From: Deltaproteobacteria bacterium
GTDB lineage: Bacteria; Desulfobacterota; DSM-4660; Desulfatiglandales; Desulfatiglandaceae
Assembly (NCBI GenBank): GCA_034522175.1
Contig: JAXHLQ010000001.1
Coordinates: 4,529,685 to 4,593,684, forward strand
Direction of reading: 5' to 3'
Length of the DNA: 64,000 nucleotides
The notes under the pieces were generated by a model. That model worked only from the letters and a program-made list of their open reading frames with translations, did not search any database and had not been told where the DNA came from. The position numbers were made by a program, and so were the translations under genes. Shown one piece after another: positions 3,470 through 27,989 of this stretch (position 1 is the stretch's first letter; each line of letters opens with the position of its first letter).

Positions 3470-3896
3470 GCCCCGTCCTTGACGTTAAAGATGATTTTCA
3501 GACAGGTCCCGTTTCCCATTTTTGAATCGATGCTCAGTTCATCGGCATTTTTTTTGATATTCGGGAGGCCCATTCCGGCACCAAATCCCATCTCCTGGAA
3601 TTCTTTGGTGGCCGTGGAATAGCCCTCCTGAAGGGCGAGTTCGATGTCTTCAATACCTGGGCCGTCGTCCCGCATTTCAAGGCGGATATGCTTCGGATCG
3701 ACAATCAGTTCACAGGTGCCGTCACCGCCGTGCATGACAATATTCATTTCCGACTCATAGGCGCATATGGCGACCCGGCGGATGAGGTCAGGGGGAAACC
3801 GACGGCTTTGAGAAGTTCCTGCACCTCGATGGATACCTCGCCGGCCTTTACAAAATCCCTGGCTTTCACCTCAAAACGTTTGATAAGGTCGGTCAT
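3466..3896 (-). CDS. Anti-sigma-factor-type Ser/Thr kinase (RsbW-like GHKL ATPase), with a frameshift in the G5 run at 3791-3795.
   Basis: ORF 3466..3747 gives ...EMNIVMHGGDG...DDGPGIEDIELALQEGYST...GFGAGMGLPNIKKNADE. The upstream frame from the ATG (complement of 3894-3896) reads MTDLIKRFEVKARDFVKAGEVSIEVQELLKAVGFP. One extra base in the run restores ...GFPPDLIRRVAICAYESEMNIVMH. Confidence 0.8.
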
Positions 3897-4453: not shown

Positions 4454-7400
4454 TTAAAGATCGCATCGAAGACAGCGACGTGCCTCGAGACACGCTGCCT
4501 TTTCATCAATGCCCAATTCAACTTCATCGAAGTTATCCACCCGATCCGCCGCTGGCAGTTCATTCATCTCGGGTCGAACCAGTTTTTCATCTTCTTCTGT
4601 GGCCTCGAGGCGCGGCAGGGTGAGATGCGGCTTGGGGTGCCAGTAACCGCCGTAGGGCCGGTCCCTGAGATAACAATCGATGGATACGGCCGCACGATGC
4701 CCGGCGCCGATGGCCTCTACCACGGTCGCCGGACCGGTAACCGCATCCCCGCCGGAGAAGAATCCGGGTACATTGGTCGCCAGGGTGCGCTCATCCACCT
4801 CAAAACTGTTCCAGCGGCTGATATTGAATTGGAGATCGTCATTCAAAAACGAGAGATCCGGAGATTGACTGATGGCCGGGATGATGACATCGGTCTCAAT
4901 AATGAATTCCGAACCTTCAACAGGGACAGGCCGTCGCCGCCCGCTGGCATCGGGTTTTCCCAGTTCGTTGAAAAGGCACTCCATACCCACGACCTTGCCG
5001 TTTTCACCGAGGATTCGAATGGGGGACGTCAACAGATCGATCTGGATCCCTTCCTCTTCCGCCGCATCGACCTCGGCCGGGTTGGCCGGCATCTGCTCGC
5101 GCTGGCGGCGATAGACGATGTGGACCTCTTCGGCCCCGAGGCGCAGGGACGTTCGTGCCGCGTCGATGGCTGAATTCCCGGCGCCGATGACACATACCTT
5201 TTTACCGGGCGCCTTCTTTTCTCCCAGGTTGACATTTCTGAGGAATTTGGTGGCGTCGATGAATCCCTCGAACTCATCTTCCCCGGGTATTCTGAGTTTC
5301 AGGCCCTTATGTGCGCCAATACCGAAGAAAAACGCCTTGTACCCTGATGCTTTCATTTCATCGATGCTGATGTCCCTTCCCACACGAACGCCCAGTCGAA
5401 TCTCCACGCCAAGCCGTTTGATGGCATTGATCTCGTCGTTGAGTACATCTCGCGGGAGCCGATATTCGGGGATGCCCACATGGAGCATTCCCCCGGCCAC
5501 GGGGAGTTCTTCAAATACGGTCACCGGATATCCCTTGAGGGTGAGATCGTGGGCCACGGTCAATCCCGCGGGACCGGCCCCGATGACGGCCACCTTGTCC
5601 TCCGGAAAAAGGGCCTTTGCAGGTTCGATATCCTTAAGGCATTCTCGATTTTTATCTGCTGCAAACCGCTTCAACGCACAGATGGAAATGGGTTTGTCCA
5701 CATCCCCCCGGGTGCATTGGGTTTCACAAGGGTGCGGGCAGATACGGCCCAGGCACATGGGGAGGGGGTTTTCCATCCGGATAATGTCCCATGCCTTTCT
5801 GAATTCACCCTGGGCGATAAGCGCCGTATAGGTGGATACATCCTGTCCCGTGGGACAGGTGGACTGGCACGGCGGCGCACTGAGCCGTTTGCAGGTTCCC
5901 GTGGGGCAGTGTTTATCGAAGATGTGGGCCTCGTATTCGTGGCGAAAATATCTCAGCGTGCTCAAAACCGGGTTGGGCGCGGTCTGACCCAAACCACAGA
6001 GCGATGCGGATTGAATGACCTTGCTCAGGGTTTCCAGCCGTTCGATATCATCGGGCCTTCCGTCTCCCTGGGTAATACGCTCCAGTATGTTCAAGAGCTG
6101 TTGGGTGCCTTCCCGACACGGTGTGCATTTGCCGCAGGACTCCTCTGCCGTAAAACCGAGGAAAAACTTGGCAAGGTCCACCATGCAGGTGGTCTCATCC
6201 ATGACCACCATTCCCCCAGAGCCCACGATAGCGCCGGTCTTGGCGATATTTTCATAATCCACCGGTGTTTCAAGTAGGCTTTCCGGAATACACCCCCCGG
6301 AAGGGCCGCCGAGTTGCACCGCCTTGAATCGCTTGTTGTCCGGGATGCCGCCGCCGATATCGTAAATAATGGATCTGAGCGGCGTTCCCATGGGCACTTC
6401 TATCAATCCGATGTTGCGTACCCGTCCGCTCAGGGCAAACACCTTGGTCCCGGTACTCTTCTCCGTCCCGAGACTACTGAACCATTCTGCCCCGCGATAG
6501 ATGATCTGGGGAACATTCGCAAGACTCTCTACGTTGTTGAGAACCGAAGGACGGTCCCACAGTCCCTTATGGGCAGGGAAGGGGGGCCTCGGCCTCGGCA
6601 TGCCCCGTTTGCCTTCAATGGACCGCATCAGGGCCGTCTCCTCACCGCATACGAAGGCGCCGGCGCCGAAATAGAGTTCGATGTCCATGTCAAACCCGGA
6701 GCCGAGAATATCCTCGCCCAAAAGCCCGTAGTCCTTGGCCTGCCCGATGGCGGTCTGCAGTCTTTGGATGGCCAGGGGATACTCCGCCCTTACATAGATA
6801 AATCCGTGGTGGGAGCCGATGGCTTTCCCACCGATGATCATCCCCTCCAGTACCGCATGGGGATCACTTTCCAGTATGGATCGATCCATGAATGCGCCTG
6901 GATCGCCTTCATCGGCATTGCACAACATGTATTTGGGACTCCCTTCGGAACCCGCGCAGAACTGCCATTTGAGGCCGGTGGGGAATCCTGCGCCGCCGCG
7001 CCCCCGCAGCCCGGATGCCTTCATCTCCTCAACGATCTGTTCCGGCGTCATCTCCAAAAGGGCCTTGGCCGTTCCCATGTACCCATCCCGGGCGATATAT
7101 TCGTCGATGCTGTCGGGATCGATCAGGCCTCTGTTCCTGAGGGCCACCAGGACCTGGCGGCTGAAGAACCCGATATCCTTGATAGCGGGTACCAGTTGCT
7201 CCCCCTCCGGGCTCTCGAAGAGGAATTTCTCGGCGATACGACCCTTGACAAGATATTCCTCAACAAAATAAGGGACGTCTTTTGTTGTGAGTTTTTGATA
7301 GAAGACCCCCTCGGGATAGGCGATCATCAATGGGCCGGCGGCGCAGAAGCCGTTACATCCGGTGGTGGCCACATAGACTTCGTCCTGGAGCTCCCGTTTG

Positions 7401-7501
7401 TTGATCTCCTCGACAAGGGCGTCTCTCACATCCAGTGATCCACTGGATACGCAACTGGTTCCTGCACAGATGAGGAGATGAACGCGGTATTTCTTTTCCA
7501 T
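4454..7501 (-). CDS. NuoF/HydB-like NADH-binding FMN flavoprotein fused to a C-terminal GltD/NfnB-like NADPH:FAD oxidoreductase domain (StnB-like architecture).
   Basis: 1015 aa. Contains an N-terminal thioredoxin-like 2Fe-2S domain, the NuoF motif GRGGAGFPTGLKW, the ESCGKCTPCREG cluster site, ferredoxin Cys motifs, then GltD-like VAVIGAGPAGL (FAD) and VCVIGAGNSAIDAART (NADPH) Rossmann motifs. Confidence 0.9.
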   Translation of the reverse strand: MEKKYRVHLLICAGTSCVSSGSLDVRDALVEEINKRELQDEVYVATTGCNGFCAAGPLMIAYPEGVFYQKLTTKDVPYFVEEYLVKGRIAEKFLFESPEGEQLVPAIKDIGFFSRQVLVALRNRGLIDPDSIDEYIARDGYMGTAKALLEMTPEQIVEEMKASGLRGRGGAGFPTGLKWQFCAGSEGSPKYMLCNADEGDPGAFMDRSILESDPHAVLEGMIIGGKAIGSHHGFIYVRAEYPLAIQRLQTAIGQAKDYGLLGEDILGSGFDMDIELYFGAGAFVCGEETALMRSIEGKRGMPRPRPPFPAHKGLWDRPSVLNNVESLANVPQIIYRGAEWFSSLGTEKSTGTKVFALSGRVRNIGLIEVPMGTPLRSIIYDIGGGIPDNKRFKAVQLGGPSGGCIPESLLETPVDYENIAKTGAIVGSGGMVVMDETTCMVDLAKFFLGFTAEESCGKCTPCREGTQQLLNILERITQGDGRPDDIERLETLSKVIQSASLCGLGQTAPNPVLSTLRYFRHEYEAHIFDKHCPTGTCKRLSAPPCQSTCPTGQDVSTYTALIAQGEFRKAWDIIRMENPLPMCLGRICPHPCETQCTRGDVDKPISICALKRFAADKNRECLKDIEPAKALFPEDKVAVIGAGPAGLTVAHDLTLKGYPVTVFEELPVAGGMLHVGIPEYRLPRDVLNDEINAIKRLGVEIRLGVRVGRDISIDEMKASGYKAFFFGIGAHKGLKLRIPGEDEFEGFIDATKFLRNVNLGEKKAPGKKVCVIGAGNSAIDAARTSLRLGAEEVHIVYRRQREQMPANPAEVDAAEEEGIQIDLLTSPIRILGENGKVVGMECLFNELGKPDASGRRRPVPVEGSEFIIETDVIIPAISQSPDLSFLNDDLQFNISRWNSFEVDERTLATNVPGFFSGGDAVTGPATVVEAIGAGHRAAVSIDCYLRDRPYGGYWHPKPHLTLPRLEATEEDEKLVRPEMNELPAADRVDNFDEVELGIDEKAACLEARRCLRCDL

Positions 7502-8512: not shown

Positions 8513-9308
8513 CTAATTGAGGATTTTTCGTCCGTCCATGCCTTTCAAGGCCAGCTTCAACTCCGCCAACCGGGGCGCGGCAACCCGGACACGCGTCGGG
8601 CTTGTGCCCAATTCATCCAGGTCATGGGCATCAGAGGCGGATATGAACGGGACCTTCGCATATTCAGAGTAATCCGCCTGCGCCTGGGACAGCGTGAGTC
8701 TTCGCGAAATCTCCAGGGCGTCAAAATTCAGGTCATCCGGAATGAATCCCAGTTGGCTGATCACACTGAAACTCCGTCGATCGATGTGTGCCGCAACAGC
8801 CAGACCACCGTGTTCGTGAATGCCGTTGACCACTTCATGAGCGTCAGGACGGTTCCACCGATCAAAAGCCGCGTATTGATGGCCTCGGCTTCGTCATATT
8901 CGTTCGCCACCACCTGCAGTCCAAAGAGATCCGGGTCGTTTTCGCCCGAAAAAAGATGACGGTAGACAATCGCCTGCATGGACAGGGCTTCTTCAACATC
9001 TTCAAACAGGCCGATAATGTGTGCTTCCTCGGCGGTGGTGATTTCCATGCCTGGGATCACGACCAGCTCGGTCCCCGCTGCCGAAGCCATCACAGCAGCC
9101 GCATTTCGGCGCTGTTGTGATCCGTAATGGCGATCATCGCCAGTTTACGCTTTAGGGCTTCCCGGACAATCTTTACCGGCGTCATATCCAGGGTGGCACA
9201 AGGGGAAAGGCAGGAGTGAACATGGGTATCGATGGTGATCCACTTCAACGGCGCTTCTGTTCCAACTGCCACCCGCACCCCTTGTTGAAAATCGTCTGAG
9301 AAACTCAA
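8513..9308 (-). CDS. PHP (polymerase/histidinol phosphatase) domain metal-dependent phosphoesterase, interrupted by two frameshifts (about 8847-8848 and TTT 9104-9106).
   Basis: The three ORF fragments 9090..9308 (IDTHVHSCLSPC...ITDHNSAE), 8761..9093 (AAVMASAAGTELVVIPGMEITTAEEAHIIGLF...) and 8513..8833 (VVNGIHEHGGLAVAAHIDRR...SASDAHDLDELG) join into one PHP protein after single-base corrections. Confidence 0.8.
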
Positions 9309-9687: not shown

Positions 9688-12600
9688 TTATATCGTGCCC
9701 CGGTAGCTCTCCACAATGTCGACAATTTGTTTCGGGTCCACCTCTCCATGGGTGGTGTCATCCACCACCATGACCGGGGCGAGTCCGCAGGCCCCGATAC
9801 ATCGGACCACTTCCAGGGAATATTCCCTATCTTCGGTGGTTTCGCCGATTCCCACGTGGAGGTGCTGCTCAAGCTTTTCCAACAGTCTTCCCGAGCCCTT
9901 GACAAAACAGGCCGTACCCAAACATACCCGGATGGTGTGTTGTCCCCTGGGGACCATGGTAAAAAACGAATAAAAGGTGACCACACCGAATACATAGGAT
10001 GGTGCAACACCGAGTCCCAGCGCAATATAGTTCTGGACGGGAACCGGCAGGAAGCCCAGGATCCCCTGGACCTGCTGCAGCACCGGAATCAGCCCACCGC
10101 GTTTGGTTTTATAGGTGGAGAGTATCTCGTCAATTTTCTCTTTCGCGTCTGTCTTTTCTTCCTCCTGAAGGAGCGCGATAAAGGCCTCTTTGACTTCTTC
10201 CGGATTGCTGGGCGGGACCTGTGTGCCGATGCCTCCGCTCTTGGGAAGGGATTCCAGGAGTCCGCCGCAATGTTCCAGCAGCGTGCGATGGTGGTAATTG
10301 AAGGATGTCCAGCCGGGACGTCTGAGGGGGGATCGTGCATCCCTGGGTCCTGGAACCCCCAGTTTCTGCGGGTCGGTCAAAGGCCGCTGCACCCCCTGTT
10401 TCTCCATGCGTTCATAGGTCATCCCCTCGAGTTGAGGGATCAGGTCGATGATTTCCTTTTCCCAAATGTCACGGGGGGTGGATTCCGGCCATGAAAGGCC
10501 CAGTCGATTGGCCAACTGGGTGAAAATCCATGTTTCCGGTTGGGCATCTCCGGGAGCAGGCACCGCATATCGAACGCGACTCACGCGTCTTTCGCAATTG
10601 GTGTACGTGCCTTCTTCTTCAGCCCAGGCGGCGGCGGGAAGCACCACATCTGCGTAGGGGATGGTTTCATTGTTCAGGATATCCTGCACCACGAGAAATT
10701 CGACTGCCTCCAGGGCAGCGGTCACGTTGGGCATGACCGGTGTGGTGAGTGCCAGATTTTCGCCCACGCAATAAAGGACGCGGATGGGCGTGCCTGCCTC
10801 CTGCTTTCCATTGCTCAGGTTTTGAATCATCTCGGAAAACCGCAAGCCGGGTTTGCTGTTCAGCGAAGTTCCCCAGGCCGTTTCAAAGGCGTTACGCGAC
10901 GCGTCATCCTCCACCCGGGCGAATCCGGGAAGAAAGTTCGGCAGCAATCCCATGTCACAGGCCCCTTGGGAATTGTTCAGATCGCCGAGGTAGTTCACCC
11001 CCCCGTAAGGGACGCCGAGATTTCCGAGGACATCCTGTAGGGCCACAAAGGTCCTGGCAAAGGAAGCAACCTTGGACCCATACACCAGCATGGCCGGTTC
11101 TTCCCTGTCGAGAATGTCCACGGCGGACAGGATATCATCGGCTGTAAGCCCCGTGATCTGTGTCACCTTAGCCATGTCATAGCTTTGCGTGCTCTTTTCG
11201 ATATCCTCAGCACATGTTCGTCCTCTTTGGATGAGTTGATGCATGATACCGTTGATGAGAACGGACTCGGTGCCCTCTTTCAAAAGAAGATGGGTATTGG
11301 CAAAGGTGCCGATCTTCGTGGGTATGGAGTTTACAACAATGAGTTGCGCACCGGCTTCGGATGCCCGCTTGACGAATGTGCCGGCGACCGGGTTTTCTTC
11401 GGTGATGTCGCTTCCGATGAGCAAAATGCGCTTCGCCTTTTCCAGTTCAGAGAGCGGGTTATTCAGCCCGCCTGCGGCGAAGGGGGAGGCCAGGTTGTTG
11501 GTGCCGATGCCCACCCTGAAGAGCTTCTGCATGGTATAAAGGGCTTCGTTTGTGGATTTGGCCGAACAGATGCCTGCAACGGAATCAGGGCCTTCTTTTT
11601 CCACGGTTTCTTTGATCTTTTTGGCGATAAGATCCAGGGCCTCTTCCCAGGAGGCACCCCTCAACTCGCCGTCCTTTCGAATCATGGGTCGGGTGAGACG
11701 TTCCGGACTCTGAACAAAATCGTATCCGAAGCGGCCCTTTACGCAAAGCCGCCCATGGTTGGGTTGGACCCCTTCGACCGCCGTGACCTTCATGATGGTG
11801 TCATTCTTGATGTGAAGATCCAGCTGGCACCCTACGCCGCAATAGTAACAGGTGGTCCGGACGTGCCGGGCCTCCCACGGTCTGATCTTGTAGCGGCTCT
11901 TTTTCTCCACCAGGGCACCGACCGGGCAGGCCTGGATGCACTGACCACAGAATACGCATTCCGACCGATCCAGGGATCCATCCCCCATGGCGATAATCCT
12001 GGCTTCGGCACCTCTGAAGCCGTGGGAAATGGCGTTATTGACCTGGATGCTGTTGCAGGCCTCTACACACCGGCCGCAGAGAATGCAGCGTGAGGCATCC
12101 CTTACAATGAGGGGACTTGCCGTCTCCATGGGATATTCGGCTGGGGCCCGGACCAGTCCACCGGTATCCACCTGATAACGGTAGGCATAGGCCTGCAGTT
12201 TACAGGCGCTGTGGGCCGGGCAGAGCTCCGTGGTTTGGTCATATTGTTCCACCTGTCGCTGAAAGTCGGTCCAGTCGTCTGAGGCCTTTTTGGCCACTGC
12301 GCAGTTGTGATTGCCGGATTGGAGCAACAGGGCCAGAACCGTTTGACGGGCTTCTTTGACCGCAGGCGAGTTGGTATGAACCACCATCTTATCGCCGGCC
12401 GGGGCGGAACAGGAGGGGGCAAGGGCGCGGGCCCCTTCGATCTCCACGAGACAGACCCGGCAGGCACCGGTCGGTGTGGTGCCTTCAAGGTGACACAGGG
12501 TGGGAATGAAAATCCCGTTGCGTCTGGCCACTTCGAGGATCGTCTCTCCAGGGGTAAACGCCAATTGGCGACCGTCTATGGTAATCTTCTGTTCGGACAT
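9688..12600 (-). CDS. FdhA/NuoG-like molybdopterin-oxidoreductase-family iron-sulfur protein that lacks the formate dehydrogenase catalytic residues, fused at its C-terminus to a NuoE-like [2Fe-2S] domain.
   Basis: The start is preferred at ATG 12598-12600 (MSEQKITIDG...), with GGAGAG upstream. The N-terminus has a 2Fe-2S fold and 2x[4Fe-4S] motifs (CILCGRCVEAC, CVFCGQCIQACP), followed by the MopB 4Fe-4S site CYYCGVGC...GRLCVKGRFG. Where FdhF has NNVDCCARVUHGPS, this protein reads IGTNNLASPFAAGGLNN. The C-terminal ~150 aa are NuoE-like (...RGGLIPVLQQVQ...CLGTACFVKG...CIGACGLAPVMVV). Confidence 0.85.
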   Translation of the reverse strand: MSEQKITIDGRQLAFTPGETILEVARRNGIFIPTLCHLEGTTPTGACRVCLVEIEGARALAPSCSAPAGDKMVVHTNSPAVKEARQTVLALLLQSGNHNCAVAKKASDDWTDFQRQVEQYDQTTELCPAHSACKLQAYAYRYQVDTGGLVRAPAEYPMETASPLIVRDASRCILCGRCVEACNSIQVNNAISHGFRGAEARIIAMGDGSLDRSECVFCGQCIQACPVGALVEKKSRYKIRPWEARHVRTTCYYCGVGCQLDLHIKNDTIMKVTAVEGVQPNHGRLCVKGRFGYDFVQSPERLTRPMIRKDGELRGASWEEALDLIAKKIKETVEKEGPDSVAGICSAKSTNEALYTMQKLFRVGIGTNNLASPFAAGGLNNPLSELEKAKRILLIGSDITEENPVAGTFVKRASEAGAQLIVVNSIPTKIGTFANTHLLLKEGTESVLINGIMHQLIQRGRTCAEDIEKSTQSYDMAKVTQITGLTADDILSAVDILDREEPAMLVYGSKVASFARTFVALQDVLGNLGVPYGGVNYLGDLNNSQGACDMGLLPNFLPGFARVEDDASRNAFETAWGTSLNSKPGLRFSEMIQNLSNGKQEAGTPIRVLYCVGENLALTTPVMPNVTAALEAVEFLVVQDILNNETIPYADVVLPAAAWAEEEGTYTNCERRVSRVRYAVPAPGDAQPETWIFTQLANRLGLSWPESTPRDIWEKEIIDLIPQLEGMTYERMEKQGVQRPLTDPQKLGVPGPRDARSPLRRPGWTSFNYHHRTLLEHCGGLLESLPKSGGIGTQVPPSNPEEVKEAFIALLQEEEKTDAKEKIDEILSTYKTKRGGLIPVLQQVQGILGFLPVPVQNYIALGLGVAPSYVFGVVTFYSFFTMVPRGQHTIRVCLGTACFVKGSGRLLEKLEQHLHVGIGETTEDREYSLEVVRCIGACGLAPVMVVDDTTHGEVDPKQIVDIVESYRGTI

Positions 12601-12777: not shown

Positions 12778-14861
12778 CTACTGACCCGTTTTCCATGTCT
12801 GCGATTTCGGATTTTTGTAACAAATCAGACCGCAGTTGAGACATCTGCGGGCCTCGTTTCTCGCAGCAGCTTCATCGAGCCCCGGCCAGGGTTTGGGGAA
12901 AATCCAGGCACTCTCACTATCCCCCTCCACATCGAGTGAAGGCGGTCGCTCTCTTTCCAGTGTCTCGACGTGGTGGACTTCTGATACATCCAGCACGGAT
13001 GCGGCTTCACACACCAATTCATCCATCGATCCAACCTGTCCGTCCGTAAGGTAGGTATGGATGGCACGGCAGAGCCGACGTCCTGAGAGGATCGACTTGA
13101 CCACCGCCGAAGAATCGCTGAGCCTGCCGGGTTCCGGTGCAGTGAACACGCCATTCCGGCCCGTTTTTGGAAACGTGTGGAAGGTTTCAACGGTTCGCCA
13201 CTGTGAGGCGGCCGCGTCCGTGGTGTCATCCGAGTCATCGGGGACAAACACCAACTCCGGGAGCCGGGCGCCTGGGAAAACAACACTGTCCACATGACGT
13301 GTGGTTGTTTCCACGAAATCCGCGCGCCGGGAATCTCGCGTTTCCAGTCCGATATCCGTCAGGCGATCATCGGTTCCTTTGAGGAAGGTCACATGGGTGG
13401 AAGCGTGAATCTCAATCCCCTCGGCAGCCAATGCGCGGGTATCTTTGAATGCCGCAGGGAGTTCGGCGGGATCAAGGTTTGAAATGATGTGTACCGTTTT
13501 TGCCCCCTGCTTTTTCAGCGTGCGTGCCAGGTCGAGTCCTTCAGCCATGTTGTGGACGATGGCGACCTCTTTGCCGATGTTGACCGTTTCGTTCGCAGCG
13601 AGGGCGGTCCAGAGATCCAGCAATATGAAAAGACCCTGAAAGGGGAGGTCAAACTGATTGACTTCAGGACGGAGGATCTTTTGGCTGTCGATCCCGCCTG
13701 TTGTCAGCACCACCGCATCATACCCTTCGTGCAGAAGCCCCCCCGGCGTGAAATCCCGACCCATGACCCTATTGGTTTTTGCCTCCACACCCATTTTCAG
13801 AATCCCATCAATTTCATGATCCAGGATGTCCCGGGGAAGCCGGTCTTCGGCAATGACATACCGTAAAATGCCTCCCAGTTCTGGTTTAGCCTCGAAGAGG
13901 GTAGGTCGGTAACCGAGCCGGGCCAGATAATAGCCGGTGGTTAACCCTTCGACACCGCCGCCGATAACAGCGATTTTGCGATGGTTGTCGTCGGCCTTGT
14001 AGGGATTGATATGGGCGTCGTTGGCCATCTCATATTCGGCGACAAATCGTTTGAGGGAATTGATGGCCACGGGTTCATCCACCATGTTTCGTCTGCAGGC
14101 CATTTCGCAGGGAGCCGGACAGATATGCCCGCAGATGAGCGGAAGGGCGCATTTCTCCTTTATGGTGAGGAGGGCCCCCGGGTAATCCCCGTTGTGGATC
14201 TGGCTGATATAGCGGGGGATGTTGATGCCGGTGGGGCAGGTCCGCTGCAAGGGGCCGTGCATTCGTCGGTCTGATATTCGTCGATGATTCGAAGTGAGTT
14301 GGAACTGAGGGTAATGATGTGTTTCGGGCAGATTCGCTCGCAGGTGCCGCAGCCTGTGCATCGCTCTGTGTTGACGATGGGCAGGTTGTCGGGCCCGATG
14401 GTGAGCGCATCAAAGGGGCACGCGCGAACACAGGTGCCGAGTCCCAGACATCCGATGGGGCATTCTTTGGACCCTCCTCCCAGCAGCATGGCGGCGCGAC
14501 AATCATGAATGCCCTGATAGATGTATTTCAGGTCTGCTTCCTGGGTTCCATAGCGGCATCCCGGGAATGCAAATTCGGGCTCCCTGAGCTCCAATTCCAC
14601 GCCCATGATGGCCGCAATTTCAACAGCGATCTCAGCTCCGCCTGCGACGCAGGAGGACGGTGAGGATTGACCGGCTACAATAGCGGCGGCGTTGGAACTG
14701 CATCCGGGTAATCCGCATCCGCCGCAGTTCGCCCCGGGGAGCGCATCGTCCACCGCTTCGATCTTGGGATCCACATACACGTAGAACACCTTCGAAGCCA
14801 GTGCCAGGCAAATGCCGATGGCAACACCCAATCCCCCCATTACCAGAAACCCACCTAACAT
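12778..14861 (-). CDS. rnfB: RnfB (Rnf complex subunit B) fused to a GltD/NfnB-like FAD flavoprotein domain, interrupted by one frameshift near 14245-14250.
   Basis: ORF 14160..14861 has an N-terminal TM helix, the CGGCGLPGC motif and 2x[4Fe-4S] motifs (CLGLGTCVRACP, CTGCGTCERICP). ORF 12778..14361 continues in another frame as ...CPTGINIPRYISQIHNGDY...ICPAPCEMACRR...KIAVIGGGVEGL. One added base gives ...DECTAPCQRTCPTGINIP. Confidence 0.8.
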
Positions 14862-14955
14862 GTCGTTCCTCCAACGTCAGTCGACTTGACCCGCTTCATC
14901 TGTCCGACTCGATTCGCTATTCACTGTTCAATCGCCAATCGTCAATCGCCAATCC

Positions 14956-15530
14956 CTACACCATCCCTTTAAAAGCGAAAAAAGCGAGGGAGATCATGCC
15001 TGCGGTCACGAGCCCGATGGACGTATCCTGCAAGGGTTTTGGAACCCTGGCGAGGAGGAGACGTTCTCGAATCCCCGCAAAGAGAATCAGGGCCAGTCCG
15101 AAGCCCACCGCATAGCTGAGAGAGGCCACCAGTGCCTGAACAAAACCGTATTCTTCGTTGATATTGATGAGGCATACCCCCATGACCGCACAATTGGTGG
15201 TGATGAGGGCAGGAATATTCCGAGCCCCGCATAGAGCGTCGGAATACTCTTTCTCAAAAACATCTCCACCAGTTGGACCAGGGATGCGATGACCAGGATG
15301 AAGGCCAGTGTCCTCAAATATTCAAGCTCAAACGGTCGGAGAAGAAATGTGTTGACGATCCAGGTGATGGCGCCTGCCATGACCAGCACGAATACGACCG
15401 CCATGGCCATTCCGGTGGCCGTCTCCATCCGTTTGGAAACCCCGAGAAAGGGACAGTTCCCGAGGTATTGCATCAGCAGGATGTTGTTGACAAAGATGCA
15501 GCTGACGATCAGTAAGATGTAGTCACCCAT
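14956..15530 (-). CDS. rnfA: Rnf complex subunit A, with a frameshift in the G3 run at 15207-15209.
   Basis: ORF 15087..15530 reads MGDYILLIVSCIFVNNILLMQYLGNCPFLGVSK...LYAGLGIFLP. ORF 14956..15183 reads ...CAVMGVCLININEEYGFVQALVASLSYAVGFGLALILFAGIRERL. One added base restores GIFLPLITTNCAVMG. Confidence 0.85.
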
Positions 15531-15548
15531 TCTGCTGCCTCCGATCGA

Positions 15549-16145
15549 TTATCTCATTTTCCCCAGCATATTCATTACACACAGCATCAACCCCAGACAG
15601 ACGAACGCCCCCGGGGCCTGCACCATGAAACCGAATGGCTCAAAGCTCGGCCCAAACACCGGAATATCGTAGAAGGTCCCATTACCGAGGACCTCACGAA
15701 CGATGGAGAGGGCGGTCAGTGACAGGGTGAAGCCCACGCCGATGCCGAGTCCGTCGGCAAAGGAATGAACAACCCCGTTCTTGGCGGCGAAGGCCTCTGC
15801 CCGGCCCAATACGATGCAGTTGACCACAATGAGGGGGATAAAGATGCCCAGTTTCAGAAAGAGGGATAGGCGAATGCCTGCATCACCAATTCGACTACGG
15901 TGACAAAGGTGGCGATCACCACGATGTAGCAGGCGATTCCGAACCCGCTTGGGGATGACGTTTCTGAGCAGCGATATCAGGACATTGGAACACACCAGCA
16001 CGAATGTGGTCGCGATGCCCATGCCGATCCCGTTTTCCACCCCCTTGGTCACGGCCAGCGTCGGACACAGGCCCAGAACCAGGCGAAAAGGTGGAATCTT
16101 GGCCCAAAGCCCTTTGGTGAATTCTTGAACTGCCGTCTTTGCCAT
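15549..16145 (-). CDS. rnfE: Rnf complex subunit E. The ORF stays open, but about 25-30 internal codons (about 15862-15937) are out of frame because of two compensating indels.
   Basis: The in-frame text ...IPKRVRNRLLHRGDRHLCHRSRIGDAGIRLSLFLKLGIFIPLIVVNCIVLGRAEAFA is unlike RnfE. The +1 frame of the same DNA reads IACYIVVIATFVTVVELVMQAFAYP, which matches the RsxE/RnfE consensus ([24 protein letters not shown]). Confidence 0.85.
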   Translation of the reverse strand: MAKTAVQEFTKGLWAKIPPFRLVLGLCPTLAVTKGVENGIGMGIATTFVLVCSNVLISLLRNVIPKRVRNRLLHRGDRHLCHRSRIGDAGIRLSLFLKLGIFIPLIVVNCIVLGRAEAFAAKNGVVHSFADGLGIGVGFTLSLTALSIVREVLGNGTFYDIPVFGPSFEPFGFMVQAPGAFVCLGLMLCVMNMLGKMR

Positions 16146-16160
16146 TTCCGCACTCCCTCA

Positions 16161-16760
16161 CTATTGTGTAAGCGCCTTTACCCCCTTGGCGATATCTGTT
16201 TTTATCCGCTGGTAGCGCGCGCTCGTTTTTCCGACCGCACCGCACACCCCCCGGGATGAAATGGTCGCGCCGCTGAGTGCATCAATCTGCCCGCCGTCGG
16301 CCTTTACCTTGAATGGGTCCTGAACGGGAAGCCCTTCAAATTGTTCGGTAAATGAGGCGTCGGTCTTTGCGCGCGACCCCACGCCCGGGGTTTCGCTGTG
16401 GGTGGTGACCTCCACGCCGACGATTTCGTCTGTGTCGATATTCACACCGACAACAACACCGATATCCCCGCCGAAGCCTTTGCCGAAAGATTCCAATGCC
16501 ACCACATTGGGCTTGCCGTCAAACACACCCACAAAAACCGTTGTTTCCTCCCCATTATCCGTCACCTTGAATCGATCGGTAATGGGATTGTTGGTACTGC
16601 CCTTTAGAATTTCATTGATGGCCGGTCCCTTGACGAACTTGAGCTGCTGGTATTCGATCCGATCCTTGGTGGCATTTTGAATGGCCGCCAGCACACCGCC
16701 GGAGAGCGAACTGAAAATGACAATCACTATGAACAGTTTCATCATCTCACGCATCTTCAT
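16161..16760 (-). CDS. rnfG: Rnf complex subunit G (FMN-binding).
   Basis: 199 aa with an N-terminal TM anchor and the covalent-FMN motif SGATISSRG. Confidence 0.85.
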   Translation of the reverse strand: MKMREMMKLFIVIVIFSSLSGGVLAAIQNATKDRIEYQQLKFVKGPAINEILKGSTNNPITDRFKVTDNGEETTVFVGVFDGKPNVVALESFGKGFGGDIGVVVGVNIDTDEIVGVEVTTHSETPGVGSRAKTDASFTEQFEGLPVQDPFKVKADGGQIDALSGATISSRGVCGAVGKTSARYQRIKTDIAKGVKALTQ

Positions 16761-17715
16761 GCCTCTTTCCCAGGGCCCTCGGCCTGATTTTGTCGAAAAG
16801 CGGATTGGCCACGTTGACCATCAGAATGGCGAACACGACGCCGTCCACAAAAGCACCGATGTTGCGGATAAGAACGGTCAGAAATCCGGCGCATGCCCCG
16901 TATATCAGCATGGGCAGGAAGTTGACCGGAGATGAGGAATCCTCTGTGGCGAGGAAAAAGGCTCCGATGAGGGTGTATCCCGTCAGGAGGTGAAACAGGG
17001 GGGGGGCATAGGCCGCTGAGTCGGCCACGTAAAACAAAAGGGCGGTCATAAAGACCCCCGTCAGAAAAGAGAGGGATATCTCCCACCGAATGAACCCTCT
17101 GAGCATCAGATAGACGCCACCGATGATGAGCCCCAGGCCGAAGGTGGAGCCGATGGCGCCGGGCTCCTGGCCCATCAACAGATCGCCCAGGGGGTAATTG
17201 TACAGGACATCGGTCCCGAAATATTTCAGGGCGCTCAACGGATAGACCATGGTCACCCCAAGATCGTAATGGACCAGGGCCTCGTTAAAATCGAGCATGG
17301 CCTCCCATGACAGCATGATCATGGCGATGGCCACCAAAGAGGGATTGAGGGGATTCCCGCCGACCCCGCCAAAAATCTGTTTTCCGATGACGATGGCGAT
17401 AAATGTGCCCACCAGGACCACCCACCACGGCGTGGATGCGGGGAGTAGCATGGCAAAGAGCAGACCGATGACCGCCGCATTCCCGTCTCCGATACTGATG
17501 GGTCTTTTCATTACCAGATTCATGAGGAGTTCCCAGCCAATGGCAAAGGAAACGGCGAAGGCCACCACACCGAGGGCGGGCGCCCCGTATTGATAGATTC
17601 CCATAATGACCGCTGGAAGCGCGGCCAGCATGGTATGGTAACTCTTGGCGCAGAGACCGCTTCCATTGTGCCAGTAGGGGGCGTATGACCCAATAAAAAG
17701 CTTTTTATTCTCCAT
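16747..17715 (-). CDS. rnfD: Rnf complex subunit D (polytopic membrane subunit).
   Basis: The start is preferred at ATG 17713-17715 (MENKKLFIGSYAPYWHNG...), with GGAGGA upstream. The tracked ORF 16747..17928 begins inside rnfC. The sequence is typical of RnfD/NqrB. The expected [S/T]GAT site reads VTMVY by eye. Confidence 0.8.
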   Translation of the reverse strand: MENKKLFIGSYAPYWHNGSGLCAKSYHTMLAALPAVIMGIYQYGAPALGVVAFAVSFAIGWELLMNLVMKRPISIGDGNAAVIGLLFAMLLPASTPWWVVLVGTFIAIVIGKQIFGGVGGNPLNPSLVAIAMIMLSWEAMLDFNEALVHYDLGVTMVYPLSALKYFGTDVLYNYPLGDLLMGQEPGAIGSTFGLGLIIGGVYLMLRGFIRWEISLSFLTGVFMTALLFYVADSAAYAPPLFHLLTGYTLIGAFFLATEDSSSPVNFLPMLIYGACAGFLTVLIRNIGAFVDGVVFAILMVNVANPLFDKIRPRALGKRHEDA

Positions 17716-18992
17716 CGGATTCCTCCGCGGCCCGCTGTAGAGCGAGTTCATGTTTCCCGAGCATAATGTAGTGAAATACGGGAATGTGAAGCATGCAGAC
17801 GTAACTGCAGAGACCGCATTCAACACATGACAGGAGGTCATAACGCTGAGCGGCTTCTTCATAGAGCCGGTTTTCAAGCAGGCGCACGAGCATGTTGACC
17901 GGTAGCCTTGCAGGGCAGGCCCGCACACATTCTCCGCAATTCACGCATGGGCTGTCCGAGGCCGCGACGATCTGATGCTTATCCTGAATAAAGATGGCAT
18001 CGGTGGTGTGCATCACCGGCATCTTTTCTGAATAGACGCTGTGGCCGGTCATGGGTCCGCCGAAGACGATCCGGTCTCCCTGATCGGTTGATATGTCGAG
18101 GTCGGTCAGGATGTCCTCTACGGGCGTCCCGATTCTTGCCCGTACAAGGCTGACGCGGGCGTCTTTGTGGATAACGGAGACGACCTTTTCCACCGGCGGC
18201 CGTCTGTCGACGAAGGCTGTTTTAAGGGCCAGTACGGCTTCGACATTAAGGACCCCCACGCCCAAATCGGAGGGGGTATGGTCACGGGGATATCCTGGTT
18301 CAGGAGGTCTCGAACCGTAAACCAGGGGAGGGCCTTTGGATAAGTGGGATCGATAACCTTGACTTCCGCACCGGTCTTCTCGGCCGCTGATTGCAGGCTG
18401 GGTGGAATAACCAGGATGACGCGAGCGGCCCCCGTTATGTCCTTGAGACAGCTTACGCCCTCCCTGATTCCCGTGGCTTCGGTGTTGAGGATAAATTGTT
18501 GGGTGGACACCAGAAGATCCTGATCGATGCCGTTTATAATAAGGGTATGGACAGGGTTCTCAATGTCGAGTATCGCGTGAACATCCGCCATGCCGGGGAG
18601 GCGGGGAGAAATTCCCGGGCGACCTGGGCACTCGGCGATTCGGCTGCATCCGTGAATCCGGTGTCCCATCTGTCCGGTTCATCCACATCGATGGTCACGC
18701 AGATGGAGCGATGATCGGTATAGGTGCTGTCTTCAAAAACGGCGTCAACCGTCCCGGTAGCTGTGGTCGTGAGATTTCCTTTCTTGCCTCCTGAAAAGGG
18801 AACTGCCGCTCCTGTCTTGACCTCTGTGTCCTGCCTGAGGCCAAGATCTCCCGGATGTATACGATTGTCATGCAGAAGGAGGGTTACTTTTTTTGGAAGC
18901 GGTATATCCCTGACTTCCGTCTGAGCGAAAAGCGCAATGTCCGCATATGTCAGTTTCGGTCTGGTAAAACCGAAAAATGGCCTTTTAATCAT
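17705..18992 (-). CDS. rnfC: Rnf complex subunit C-like protein, interrupted by two frameshifts (G5 18272-18276 and G4 18603-18606). The NADH/FMN-binding glycine motif is not recognisable.
   Basis: The fragments 18534..18992 (N-terminal barrel-like part), 18118..18669 (...HTLIINGIDQDLLVSTQQFIL...) and 17705..18265 (...CVNCGECVRACP...CVECGLCSYVC) join after single-base corrections. The consensus GMGGAGFPTHVK/NGAECEPYLT region reads LPGMADVHAILDI/NGIDQDLLVS. Confidence 0.75.
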
Positions 18993-19081
18993 CGCTTGCC
19001 TCCTGACTCATGAGAAAGGGACCCGTCTTTCCCATAAGAAAAGGGTTTGAACCTGATGCACATGGCGCTTTGGCGAGGATC

Positions 19082-19456
19082 TTACCTCATGTGGCAGGAA
19101 TAACATTCGACCGGACCGCTCCCACTGTCTTTGTGGCACCCAATACATTGCTTGTGAAGGGCGTCGGATCGCTTGGGGGCATCCTCGCCATCCGATAAAT
19201 GACATTCTCCACAAGACGTCGGTCTTTCGCCTTCGTCTTCGAGCATGTGATGGCATGTGTTGCATTCGAATGCGTAACCGGCCTCGGAAAAATGCATGTT
19301 ATGATCAAACAGGACCTTTCCGCCTGTGGTTTTGTACATAATTCTTAAGGGATTTTCGGGTGTCTTTTTTGCGAAGGCCGTGTAGCAGAGGAGCCCTGCA
19401 ATGAACAGGACAACTGCCATGACGTAGCCAATCGTTTTTTGAGTGTTTGCGGCCAT
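19082..19456 (-). CDS. Membrane-anchored tetraheme c-type cytochrome (cytochrome c3-like); first gene of the rnf array.
   Basis: Four CxxCH motifs (CNTCH, CGECH, CIGCH, CYSCH) follow one N-terminal hydrophobic helix. The start is preferred at ATG 19454-19456 (MAANTQKTIGYVMAVVLFIAG...), with GAGGAG upstream. Confidence 0.8.
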   Translation of the reverse strand: MAANTQKTIGYVMAVVLFIAGLLCYTAFAKKTPENPLRIMYKTTGGKVLFDHNMHFSEAGYAFECNTCHHMLEDEGERPTSCGECHLSDGEDAPKRSDALHKQCIGCHKDSGSGPVECYSCHMR

Positions 19457-26076: not shown

Positions 26077-27989
26077 ATGAAGACGTTTTCTGTTGGTTTA
26101 AAAGATAAACCCTCTATAGAAATCGAGGCGGATCGACTGTCGGCCGCAGACGCCCTCAAACGCTTAGAGGTGGGCGGTCTCGATCGTATCGTTACCGTAG
26201 GTGTAAATGGTGTGCTCCGTGATCTCTTTTATGAACTGGATGTCGATAGCGAGCTGGAGCCGGTATACTTACATTCTGATGAAGGCATGGAGATTCTCCG
26301 TCACAGTACCGCGCATGTGATGGCCATGGCCGCAAAAGCGCTCTTTCCCGGCATCAAGGTGACGATTGGGCCAGCCATAGCGAATGGTTTTTATTACGAT
26401 TTTGATTACGAAAGGCCCTTAAAGGAAGAAGACCTCCCGCGCATAGAAGAGAAGATGGAAGAGATCATCAAGGCGGATCTGCCGTTTACCCGCAAAGTGC
26501 TTTCCAGCGAGGCAGCCATTGATTTTTTCAGCGCCGAGGATGAGACCTACAAGGTTGAATTAATCGAAGATCTCGGGAGTGAGACGGTATCGCTGTACAG
26601 CCAGGGGGTTTTACCGACCTGTGTCGCGGGCCCCACATACCGTCTACGGGATTGATCAAGGCCTTTCGATTGACCCATGTGGCCGGCGCCTATTGGCGGG
26701 GGGATGAAAAGCGTCCCATGTTGAGCCGCGTTTACGGGGTGGCCTTCTCCGATCAGAAGCGCCTGAAGAAGCATCTTCATCAGCTTGAGGAAGCGAAAAA
26801 GCGAAACCATGTGAAACTGGGACCGAAACTGGGGCTGTTCAATACTTACGATGAGATCGGCGCGGGTATGATCGTCTGGCATCCCAAGGGGGCCATGCTG
26901 CGTCACATTTTGGAGAGCTTCGAAGTGGAGGAGCATCTCAAGCGGGGTTACGAACTGGCCAGGGGGCCGCAGATCCTGAAAACGGAATTGTGGAAAAAAT
27001 CGGGCCATTTTGAAAATTACCGGGAAAACATGTATTTTACCGAGATCGATGAGCAGTCCTATGGCATCAAGCCGATGAACTGCCTGGCCCACATGCTCAT
27101 CTACCGTTCGGAAATCCGGAGTTATCGGGACCTCCCTAAACGCTATTTTGAATTGGGAACGGTTCACCGTCACGAACGGTCCGGGGTGTTGAACGGCCTT
27201 TTTCGGGTCAGGGAGTTTACACAGGACGATGCCCATATCATCTGCACACCGGGTCAACTCGACGATGAGATTACCGGCGTGCTTGATTTCGTGAAAGATG
27301 TCATGGGTATTTTTGACTTTGATTACCAACTTGAAGTCAGCACACGCCCTGAAAAATCCATCGGATCAGATGAAGACTGGGAACTAGCCACCGACGCGCT
27401 CATCAAGGCCGTAAATGACAACCGTTTGAACTATGACATCAATGAGGGGGACGGCGCGTTTTATGGGCCCAAGATCGATGTCAAGCTCAGAGATGCGCTG
27501 GGGCGAAGCTGGCAATGTGCGACCATTCAGTGTGATTTTACGCTACCGGACAAGTTTGATCTGACCTACGTGGACAAAGACGGGGAACGGCACAGGCCGG
27601 TTATGATTCACCGGGTGATTCTCGGTGCCGTTGAACGGTTCATTGGTGTCCTCATCGAGCATTACGCCGGTGCGTTTCCGACCTGGTTGGCACCCGTACA
27701 GGCCGTTGTGCTCACCGTAACCGATCGAAATACGCCCTACGCCGAGAGCGTCAGGAGGCGTCTCGCGACGGCCGGAATTCGTGCAGAGGCGGATGTGAGA
27801 AACGAAAAGCTCGGGTTTAAGGTGAGAGAGGCCCAGGTACAAAAAATTCCCTATATGTTGATTATCGGGGATAAAGAGTGTGATAATCAGGAGGTAACCC
27901 CGCGATTGAGGAATGGTCAGAATCTATCCAGCATGTCGGTGGAGGCATTCATTGATCGCATCAAGGATGAATCGGAACAGAGGAGGTAG
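26077..27989 (+). CDS. thrS: Threonine--tRNA ligase, with a frameshift in the G5 run at 26604-26608.
   Basis: ORF 26077..26655 carries the TGS and editing-domain N-terminus (...[10 protein letters not shown]...LYSQG). ORF 26652..27989 carries the class II core and anticodon-binding domain. A sixth G gives [38 protein letters not shown]. Confidence 0.9.

Follow-up and report, generated by a model that had tools for sequence, protein, structure and literature searches.

The Rnf2 complex has been reported as a core, constitutive and abundant redox complex of the Desulfobacteraceae, which are major marine sulfate reducers (PMC11887813). Its large RnfB, the Desulfobacula toluolica Tol2-type, was found in all Desulfobacteraceae genomes and is constitutively expressed (PMC5109826; PMC11887813 and supplement). 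This protein of about 700 aa consists of an RnfB part of about 200 aa and a pyridine-nucleotide-disulfide-oxidoreductase-like extension of about 500 aa, for which the literature infers binding of NAD(H). The Tol2-type was described together with an RnfC without FMN/NADH site and with a cytochrome c3 (PMC5109826 section 23; PMC11887813 supplement).

The nearest relatives of the extension are the GltD-like inserts of StnC/NfnA (BfuA) in the StnABC/NfnABC transhydrogenases (PDB 8OH5, 9BOV, 9N5U). In these enzymes the domain is built into a NuoG/Fdh-like subunit, and electrons travel through the clusters of the domain; in StnC it binds NADPH, and K170 is a cluster ligand (PMC10482914). A further GltD-like, FeS- and NADP-binding protein is FdhB, the beta subunit of NADP-dependent formate dehydrogenases of the Moorella thermoacetica type, where it is the partner of a cytoplasmic Sec-FdhA. 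Moorella FdhB is soluble and uses NADPH (PMC5736913). NfnB (NfnL), GltD and the N-terminal module of DPD resemble the extension in fold and in the arrangement of cofactors (2x[4Fe-4S] and FAD). Here we compare with these systems an rnfB locus in a 64,000-nucleotide stretch of the genome of a Deltaproteobacteria bacterium, referred to as the window.

The large rnfB gene is interrupted by a frame break

In the window, the rnfB region is covered by two overlapping open reading frames. The ORF at 14160-14861(-) encodes 233 aa with a TM helix, the PF04060 motif NCGGCGLPGC and a 2x[4Fe-4S] domain, and matches TIGR01944 (rnfB) with 87.8 bits at a cut-off of 68.7. In a profile search the ORF at 12778-14361(-) matched PF14691 (Fer4_20; 2.4e-22) and PF07992. 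The architecture of RnfB plus a GltD/NfnB-like domain given in the preliminary description is confirmed. Joining of the two ORFs at the junction 14246/14247 results in a protein of 694 aa.

The position of the break was located by DNA alignment with the relative L001, in which rnfB is one ORF of 688 aa within the same operon. Compared to the family, the window is one base short at 14246..14247(-), between TGC (C205) and AG(CGG). Codon 205 of RnfB (TGC) has its last base at 14247; the GltD frame starts at 14244 and continues to the stop at 12778. Addition of one base at 14246/14247 restores ECTAPCQRTCPTG, the junction that is invariant (ECTAPCQRxCP) across 117 intact homologues of 662-718 aa. 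Placing the repair in the GGCCCC run was ruled out; it yields ECTAPLQ and loses the invariant C205.

More than 100 intact homologues of 680-700 aa are single ORFs, the closest with 80% identity. Indels are common in this assembly: rnfA, rnfC and thrS are split, as are the rnfD gene of the second operon and the PHP and HATPase genes, and the rnfB operon contains at least seven further frame switches within 17 kb. A programmed frameshift was ruled out, as all clean homologues are single ORFs and the same assembly also breaks thrS, rnfA and rnfC. Judged by these comparisons, both ORFs are one gene, rnfB of an Rnf2-type complex, and the split is most likely an assembly error of one base. The preliminary description had likewise assumed a single gene after correction of one indel, and the intact homologues and the invariant junction bear this out.

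Domain organization of the 694-aa protein

By its sequence the 694-aa product is a membrane-anchored RnfB (residues ~1-195) followed by an FdhB/StnC-type FeS-flavoprotein domain (residues ~196-694). The part matching TIGR01944 above cut-off, rnfB proper (residues 1-205), extends over 14247..14861(-). It starts with the TM anchor (14787-14861(-)), predicted by AF2 as a helix at residues 2-25, and includes the PF04060 cysteine motif (14646-14741(-)). A 2x[4Fe-4S] ferredoxin domain (14310-14462(-)) is followed by a linker to the invariant C201/C205. According to these sequence motifs, the RnfB part (~1-195) retains its own FeS clusters.

The extension begins with a StnC/GltD-type 2x[4Fe-4S] domain (Fer4_20; 14020..14261(-)) with the pattern C201-x3-C205-x3-C209-P ... 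C244, C248-P-x2-C252-E-x2-C256 and the FeS motifs CQRTCPTGINIP and ICPAPCEMACRR. Among the 117 homologues C201, C205, C209, C248, C252 and C256 are invariant, and C238 and C244 are found in at least 90%. The invariant K271 of this domain occupies the position of the StnC ligand K170. At the C-terminus an invariant RCLxCGLICY (C674, C677, C681; 12817..12846(-)) precedes the stop codon (12778-12780); its counterpart in the alignment is RCLECGC, the segment at the end of the GltD insert of StnC/NfnA. Judged by the alignments, the C-terminal RCLxC seems to provide the first canonical cysteine of Fer4_20, as it does in StnC.

The FAD Rossmann beta-alpha-beta unit is encoded at 13864..13977(-) (KIAVIGGGVEGL...FEAKPELGG). 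This motif had been described as intact, and its glycines G301, G303 and G306 as well as R334 are indeed invariant in the family, while E324 is conserved in at least 90%. The FAD-module features GxGxxG, the acidic residue after beta-2 and the Arg of GG(I/M)LRY are present. In place of the canonical C-terminal FAD 'GD' motif, however, the protein carries PEPGRLSD (13114..13137(-)) with a 2-residue insertion. At this position P-E-P-G-R-x-S-D is invariant across the family, including E577 and D583. Because of this replacement, flavin binding by the extension is not certain.

Similarity searches place the domain closest to the StnC/NfnA inserts, which were the top matches both by sequence (E 1e-50 to 1e-56) and by fold (E ~1e-29 to 4e-30). 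NfnB, GltD and DPD are more distant (E 1e-35 or weaker), and all bind NADPH. Common to the StnC/NfnA insert and the window are the C-x3-C-x3-CP start, the lysine ligand (K170/K271), the FAD Rossmann motif and RCLxCG at the end. The homology is limited to the insert. A StnC/NfnA subunit carries it inside a NuoG/Fdh-like polypeptide with an N-terminal [2Fe-2S]; in the window the NuoG/Fdh-like part is encoded by a separate gene, the next one at 9688-12600, and the domain is fused to RnfB instead. Many large RnfBs bear the IMG name 'formate dehydrogenase (NADP+) beta subunit'. In contrast to FdhB, the domain in the window is tethered to the membrane via RnfB, has no NADPH loop and has a candidate partner without the catalytic Sec/His segment. 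No curated NCBIfam model reached its own cut-off on the extension.

The NAD(P)H site is lost in a whole clade of large RnfBs

At the second dinucleotide loop, where relatives have GGGNTAxDAAR, the window reads VAIVHNMAEGLDLART (13519..13566(-)); the StnC/NfnA equivalent is VVGGGNTAMDAART. Here GGGxxA is replaced by HNMAEG. Where the NAD(P)H subdomain of relatives has (Y/F)R(R) behind beta-2, YRR in StnC/NfnA, the alignment shows S-N-L (13474..13482(-)), with Asn in the position of the Arg. Both elements of the NADPH site, the GxGxxA loop and the Arg-Arg after beta-2, are therefore absent from the aligned extension. The degenerate loop is not an assembly artefact: in L001/L005, an independent assembly whose protein is 80% identical, the loop reads VALVHNMAEGLDLARS and is degenerate as well. 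The degeneracy noted in the preliminary description is thus real, and its position is 13519-13566 by the present count rather than 13521-13575. The claim that the NuoF fusion of the same operon has an intact nucleotide loop also stood; it reads VIGAGNSAIDAA.

Conservation of the loop is seen only outside the window's clade. All nine sampled StnC-type relatives have GGGN(T/V)AxD. The tree also included six fusion representatives from deep branches or outlying positions, and four of these have it, too. A GxGxxA-type loop is retained in P0122 (GGGKLALEAA) and P0123 (GSGNSAVEAA), and P0128 is without it. The window belongs to clade A (42 members, SH-aLRT 99), in which the GGG and R462 positions are variable. 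Of the 25 members of the sister RnfB clade B, 24-25 have GGG and all have R462. Some clade-B members (EGG/DGG loops) also lack the first Gly. Within clade A the loop positions vary freely (H/D/G/N, G/N/S/A and others). The remainder of the domain is conserved, with a within-clade identity of 0.61-0.75 in the FeS and FAD parts. On this alignment and tree, the absence of both dinucleotide loop and Arg is derived and characterizes the clade as a whole. In this respect the window and its 42-member clade differ from the published Rnf2 with its inferred NAD(H) binding. In the literature searched, no description of this loop-loss branch was found.

Operon and distribution of the Rnf2-type complex

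The large rnfB is the last gene of an rnfCDGEAB cluster. Its upstream context (14956..19456(-), from high to low coordinates) consists of a cytochrome c, rnfC, rnfD, rnfG, rnfE and rnfA. The cytochrome c is a membrane-anchored tetrahaem protein with four CxxCH motifs and a TM helix (19082-19456(-)). Both rnfA (14956-15530(-)) and rnfC (~17708-18959(-)) are frameshifted. RnfC has no FMN/NADH motifs: in an alignment with 8AHX_C, GLGGAxFP and NGSECEP are replaced, and GxGGxxFP and NxxECEP are missing in 61 of 61 linked RnfC proteins. As a positive control, the second, canonical rnf operon of the same genome encodes GIGGAGFP, NGAECEP and a short RnfB.

The locus therefore shares with published Rnf2 the RnfB-like N-terminus of about 200 aa, the Pyr_redox-type extension of about 500 aa after frame joining, the RnfC without FMN/NADH domain, the cytochrome c3-type gene in the cluster and a canonical Rnf in the same genome. 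Absent is the NAD(H)-binding site on the extension inferred in the literature. The fusion had been regarded as unusual. It is the already known large RnfB of the Rnf2/Tol2 type, a common and described protein class: we found it in 176 genomes of a 209-genome sample of the class, and at least 550 species genomes carry it.

Downstream of rnfB lies a candidate partner gene, encoding an Fdh-like protein (NuoG-type, without the Sec/His segment) fused to NuoE (9688..12600(-)). The same operon encodes a NuoF fused to a second GltD-like domain (4454..7501(-)), the one with the intact loop. Fdh-like-NuoE is located directly 3' of rnfB in 36 of the 41 degenerate-loop loci with downstream sequence. In the 209-genome class sample, 33 genomes have it beside an RnfB of this type, and it occurs in no other place; the gap to rnfB is 17-230 nt in 33/33 resolvable genomes. 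The module varies in its nucleotide specificity, as about half of clade A has plain NuoF and half NuoF-GltD.

Other large RnfBs have other neighbours. Some are followed by a genuine Sec-FdhA gene (HCARL-U-H motif), and clade-B operons often have no Fdh-like neighbour at all; the clade-B members with EGG/DGG loops are without the module, too. By gene order, D. multivorans rnfB2 differs from the window in having hppA 1.9 kb downstream and no direct Fdh-like-NuoE/NuoF module. A Spirochaetota locus contains two tandem large RnfBs together with NuoE/NuoF/Fdh-like genes; one has the canonical GGGNTAIDAAR..YRR, and the other, sister to the window's clade, has YPY. On the tree, motif loss and module presence amount to about one evolutionary event, and the independent contrasts were too few to reach significance. 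The link between motif and module is for this reason a clade-level pattern only.

Possible roles of the extension

Loss of the NAD(P)H pocket and the adjacent Fdh-like-NuoE/NuoF module suggest that the large RnfB probably wires this module to the pump. With a probability of roughly 0.55, we favour a single rnfB gene whose extension has lost the NAD(P)H site and is a FAD/FeS docking and wiring unit for the NuoG-type partner. The extension would no longer react with NAD(P)H. It would act as a FAD/FeS relay and as a docking surface for the Fdh-like-NuoE encoded just downstream, while Fdh-like-NuoE and NuoF(-GltD) would provide the NADH/NADPH sites. Since RnfC has also lost its FMN/NADH site and the nucleotide sites lie on the module, pyridine-nucleotide electrons would enter or leave Rnf via RnfB, and they would run from RnfB to RnfA/E-G-D and on to the tetrahaem cytochrome c of the operon. 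A docking site for the neighbouring flavoprotein module was among the roles proposed in the preliminary description, and the clade-specific adjacency of Fdh-like-NuoE favours this reading.

Several other explanations have to be weighed against it. The assembly as given contains two ORFs, and the gene annotated in this genome (P0005) encodes 494 aa; with a real frameshift, RnfB would be truncated to 233 aa and the flavoprotein part would be a separate 494-527-aa product or a pseudogene. This is very improbable given that the genes named above, the essential thrS among them, are broken likewise, that the 489 codons after the break are free of additional stops and share 75-77% identity with the relative, and that the same gene is split in further MAGs with long contigs, which are probably assembled from long reads, e.g. 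L039. It is also improbable that the extension still binds NAD(P)H or another dinucleotide via a non-canonical pocket, with RnfB remaining the nucleotide entry. The literature annotates an 'NAD-binding domain' and assumes nucleotide entry for Rnf2, the Rossmann subdomain fold is kept (AF2 pLDDT ~90 over residues 430-530), and the within-clade identity of this second subdomain is 0.41 in clade A vs 0.47 in clade B. Yet the three Gly are all gone together with the Ala pair and the Arg, the free variation of the loop positions is unlike a remodelled binding site, and the PF00070/PF13450 'NAD-binding' matches sit on the FAD Rossmann (residues 129-166 of the second ORF), not on the second one.

The extension could instead be a vestigial, redox-inert structural appendage that is disappearing since the NuoF module took over the nucleotide function. 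The missing loop and the altered GD motif would fit such decay, which we nevertheless hold to be unlikely: about 100 positions are invariant in 117 sequences from several phyla, among them all FeS cysteines, K271, GxGxxG, R334, E577/D583 and the C-terminal CxxCxxxC, and the ORFs are intact wherever assemblies are clean. A different partner or substrate (docking of ferredoxin or flavodoxin, or an NfnB-like bifurcating flavin), with the neighbouring module merely co-regulated, would explain the clade-B operons without Fdh-like neighbour, and NfnB-type FADs can bifurcate (PMC10482914). The strict adjacency in the window's clade, with its short gaps in all resolvable genomes, and the StnC type of the domain, whose FAD was reported as non-bifurcating (PMC10482914), make this doubtful as well.

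Building on the wiring role, we tentatively consider a further, speculative arrangement. The nucleotide-blind RnfB extension may be a socket that fixes a Bfu-type (NuoE/NuoF/NuoG-like) flavin module on the Rnf2 core. In such a membrane supercomplex, oxidation of NADH (here also NADPH), possibly with flavin-based bifurcation or confurcation, would be linked directly to ion transport across the membrane and to the periplasmic cytochrome c3, with no free ferredoxin in between. Na+-NQR offers a comparison by analogy only. NqrF, a membrane-anchored FeS, flavin and NAD(P)H subunit, stands at the position of RnfB, like the clade-B Rnf2 protein, and NqrA, the homologue of RnfC, no longer has its nucleotide site, as is the case for RnfC in Rnf2. 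However, NqrF is not homologous (FNR-type fold), and the window's copy is without any nucleotide site.

Implications for Rnf2 complexes

Current models put NAD(H) binding on the large RnfB. On the sequences compared here, this cannot hold for one large, well-supported branch. The extension is homologous to the FdhB/StnC module, the usual partner of NuoG-type formate-dehydrogenase subunits, and the gene neighbourhoods sort by the loop trait: a dead Fdh-like-NuoE plus NuoF, an active Sec-FdhA, or nothing. Homology and neighbourhood sorting together lead to testable predictions of partner and electron donor for each Rnf2 subtype. If the socket arrangement were true, Rnf2 would be an 'FdhB-RnfB' platform, onto which lineages load an active Sec-FdhA, an NAD(P)H site or a NuoEF module. 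The homology and the gene neighbourhoods also hint that bifurcating flavoenzymes may be linked directly to an ion pump.

One large rnfB gene with a frame break at the domain junction

In the window, rnfB is read in two overlapping open reading frames on the minus strand. The product of the first (14160-14861, 233 aa) has a hydrophobic helix at its N-terminus, carries NCGGCGLPGC (PF04060) and two Cys motifs of the ferredoxin type, and scores above the cut-off of the rnfB model TIGR01944. The second (12778-14361) lies in a different frame and encodes a GltD-like protein matching PF14691 (Fer4_20, 2.4e-22) and PF07992. The frames meet at 14247/14246, where RnfB codon 205 (TGC) ends at 14247; the GltD-like frame is open from 14244 to its stop at 12778. 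One added base joins both frames (...DECTAPCQRTCPTGINIP...) and yields a 694-aa protein. With this joined protein as query, over 100 intact homologues were found, 662-718 aa long (coverage 95-100%, best identity 80%), and all of them combine PF04060, Fer4, PF14691 and PF07992. Two alignments, with 16 and 117 members, show no variation at the junction residues C201, T202, P204, C205, C209, P210, T211 and G212. In the closest relative, a Deltaproteobacteria MAG (locus L001), the same operon carries a single ORF of 688 aa, and alignment of its DNA with the window leaves a one-base gap exactly at the junction. Placement of the missing base in a nearby GGCCCC run was ruled out, as the invariant C205 would become Leu; the base was therefore placed after TGC. 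The intact homologues, the invariant junction and the 688-aa ORF bear out the proposal of the preliminary description that RnfB and the GltD-like part form one ORF after correction of one indel. The frame break is very probably an assembly indel. The same gene is also broken in other long-contig MAGs, likely long-read assemblies.

Set against the L001 proteins, this 17-kb part of the window has no fewer than seven frame switches (rnfC twice, rnfA, rnfB, PHP twice, HATPase), and rnfE has a probable compensated indel pair with an out-of-frame Arg/His-rich stretch. Against close homologues, frame-switched genes are rnfA, rnfC, PHP, HATPase and the essential thrS (14956-18959, 8519-9272, 3472-3896 and 26077-27989); TIGR00418 positions 1-105 and 122-564 of thrS fall on separate ORFs. 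The second rnf operon of this genome has a split rnfD and an in-frame TGA in rnfB. Since the assembly (2 contigs, 5.24 Mb) is indel-rich, ORF integrity carries little meaning here.

The large RnfB belongs to the Rnf2 class

The fusion had been regarded as unusual; it is instead a known and common class. An RnfB of ~700 aa with 'NAD+-binding sites' was described for the 'D. toluolica Tol2-type' Rnf, whose RnfC lacks the NADH-ubiquinone-oxidoreductase domain, and both Rnf1 and Rnf2 of D. multivorans were seen by proteomics (PMC5109826, section 23). Rnf2 occurs in every Desulfobacteraceae genome and belongs to the core genome, its formation is abundant and constitutive, and its cluster includes a cytochrome c3 gene; its function is putative (PMC11887813 and supplement). 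Our own counts agree with this spread. Within the window's class, 176 of the 209 genomes had a match, as did 86 of the 89 genera. A relative is present in at least 550 species-representative genomes, among them the type strains of Desulfacinum infernum and D. hydrothermale as well as MAGs with the labels Fibrobacteraceae, Eisenbacteria, Kiritimatiellae, Spirochaetota and Acidobacteriota.

Of the 61 RnfC genes that are linked to a large RnfB, none has the GxGGxxFP or the NxxECEP motif. Outside the window (L088, G000:C1:2448000-2454000), the genome holds a second, canonical rnf operon, with GIGGAGFP and NGAECEP in RnfC and a short RnfB. The window operon is headed by a gene for a membrane-anchored tetrahaem cytochrome c.

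The extension resembles StnC inserts and has a degenerate nucleotide site

By sequence, the extension comes closest, among solved proteins, to the GltD-like inserts of NfnA (9BOV, 9N5U) and StnC (8OH5); E values for these lie between 1e-50 and 1e-56, and NfnB (~1e-35) and GltD are far behind. Foldseek ranking with an AF2 model of the intact homologue P0001 (pLDDT 78) was identical. In an exhaustive HMMER search, the RnfB fusions were followed by StnC-like proteins of 1100-1250 aa, matched over residues ~97-580. The extension shares with the StnC/NfnA inserts the C-x3-C-x3-CP start and the closing EAxRCLxCG motif, and one of its Lys residues corresponds to K170 of StnC, which ligates a cluster (PMC10482914). 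Many large RnfBs are named 'formate dehydrogenase (NADP+) beta subunit' in IMG, the Moorella FdhB type (PMC5736913). Other public names are '(Fe-S)-binding protein', 'FAD-dependent oxidoreductase', '4Fe-4S binding protein', 'formate dehydrogenase beta subunit', 'NADPH-dependent glutamate synthase beta subunit-like' and 'RnfB'. No NCBIfam model reached its cut-off on the extension.

The FeS motifs and the FAD Rossmann motif (KIAVIGGGVEGL...FEAKPELGG) are intact. The canonical GD motif is altered to PEPGRxSD, so flavin occupancy is putative. The second dinucleotide loop reads VAIVHNMAEGLDLART (13519-13566), compared with VVGGGNTAMDAART in the best solved relatives, and (Y)RR after beta-2 is replaced by SNL. 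The independent assembly of the relative reads almost identically, so the motif is no artefact. The degenerate motif holds as first described, as does the intact one (VIGAGNSAIDAA) in the GltD domain that is fused to NuoF in this operon.

The invariant C-terminal RCLxCGLICY (three Cys; 12817-12846) and C201 (14259-14261) provide, family-wide, more Cys than two [4Fe-4S] clusters need. They match residues flanking the StnC GltD insert (H-x3-C ... C-x2-C-x-C-x5-C-KLQ) and could either complete a permuted Fer4_20 cluster or make up an additional or interface cluster.

Loop state divides the family

Maximum-likelihood analysis of the extension (92 rows) placed the RnfB fusions as sister to the StnC-type inserts. 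Within the fusions it separates a 25-row clade with an intact site (clade B), which takes in Desulfacinum and Desulfatiglandales, from a 42-row clade with the window (clade A, SH-aLRT 99); several small clades also have an intact site. Clade B retains GGG in 24-25 of 25 rows and A445 and R462 in all 25. In clade A the loop positions vary (H/D/G/N, G/N/S/A, G/L/A/T) and R462 is replaced by N/D/P/K. GGGN(T/V)AxD is present in 9/9 sampled StnC-type relatives and in 4/6 of the representatives of deep-branching or outlying fusions that the tree also includes; a GxGxxA-type loop remains in the homologues P0122 and P0123 and is gone from P0128. The remaining domain is equally conserved in clades A and B, with ~100 positions invariant among 117 sequences. 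The tree, the intact loops of the relatives and the conserved remainder mark the loop loss as a derived trait of the whole clade that is confined to the nucleotide pocket.

Six clade-B loci (L059, L061, L065, L071, L073, L076) have Glu or Asp for the first Gly of GGG (ILEGGK..., ILDGGK...) and no Fdh-like neighbour. These loops would be a further, independent weakening of the nucleotide site.

Degenerate-loop RnfBs adjoin a formate dehydrogenase-like module

Downstream of the window rnfB lies a gene for a NuoG-type formate dehydrogenase-like protein fused to NuoE (Fdh-like-NuoE). The comparison of neighbours covered the 64 retrieved loci that extend at least 1.5 kb past rnfB (41 degenerate-loop, 23 intact-loop); an Fdh-like gene follows directly in 36/41 degenerate-loop and 3/23 intact-loop loci. 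In two of these three (L057, L079) it is a Sec-FdhA without NuoE; the third (L022) has a full-length Fdh-like-NuoE, and its loop, GSGLRG, was probably scored intact by a chance pattern match. Across the class sample, window-type RnfB is adjoined by a full-length Fdh-like-NuoE orthologue in 33 genomes (gaps of 17-230 nt), and the sample has no such orthologue elsewhere; five cases are cut by contig ends. In D. multivorans, hppA lies 1.9 kb beyond rnfB2, so no such module follows there.

Genuine selenocysteine FdhA, with the HCARL-U-HSS motif and a NuoG-like N-terminus, directly follows the large RnfB at L034, L035, L057 and L079 and in at least 14 further genomes (carriers include G177, G178, G151, G063, G154, G155, G160, G185-G190, G193 and G198). 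This gene order suggests formate-linked Rnf2 complexes. The window-type Fdh-like protein has a 15-residue deletion exactly at the HCARL-U-HSS site.

In the clade-A operon of Ca. Desulfacyla euxinica (L015 = G089:C230), a Sec-FdhA gene (14638-16965) follows NuoF-GltD; in that operon the module is possibly a full Hyl/Fdh-like bifurcating formate dehydrogenase attached to Rnf2. In the window, regulatory genes and a HydS-like gene occupy the Sec-FdhA position.

At a Spirochaetota locus (L002:7848-12055, MAG GCA_034190085.1), two large rnfB paralogues lie in tandem. The NADPH site of copy 1 is fully canonical (GGGNTAIDAAR...YRR, AGD); copy 2, with GGGNST..YPY and a changed FAD motif, is sister to the window's clade. 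The pair is followed by genes for NuoE, a NuoE-like protein, NuoF and an Fdh-like protein of 919 aa.

A putative docking and relay function

By its motifs, the extension is an FdhB/StnC-type module fused to RnfB, with FeS and FAD determinants kept and NAD(P)H determinants gone; the nucleotide site is missing from the RnfC of the operon too. The NuoG-type Fdh-like-NuoE gene and a NuoF gene consistently come next. From homology and gene order we infer that the extension docks the Fdh-like-NuoE/NuoF(-GltD) module. It would relay electrons between the cluster chain of this module and the RnfB clusters, and via RnfA/E, RnfG and RnfD they would pass towards the operon's cytochrome c. Such a relay would parallel the homologous insert within StnC, with its path FAD-C7-C6-C5...FMN (PMC10482914), and StnC serves as a 'Rosetta-stone' fusion of both partners. 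The link between motif loss and module is a single evolutionary event and the contrasts are not significant, and some clade-B members with EGG loops are without the module. A degenerate-site clade with a distinct, strictly linked partner module is undescribed in the papers searched. The loop loss marks a clade with its own partner module inside the already known Rnf2 class.
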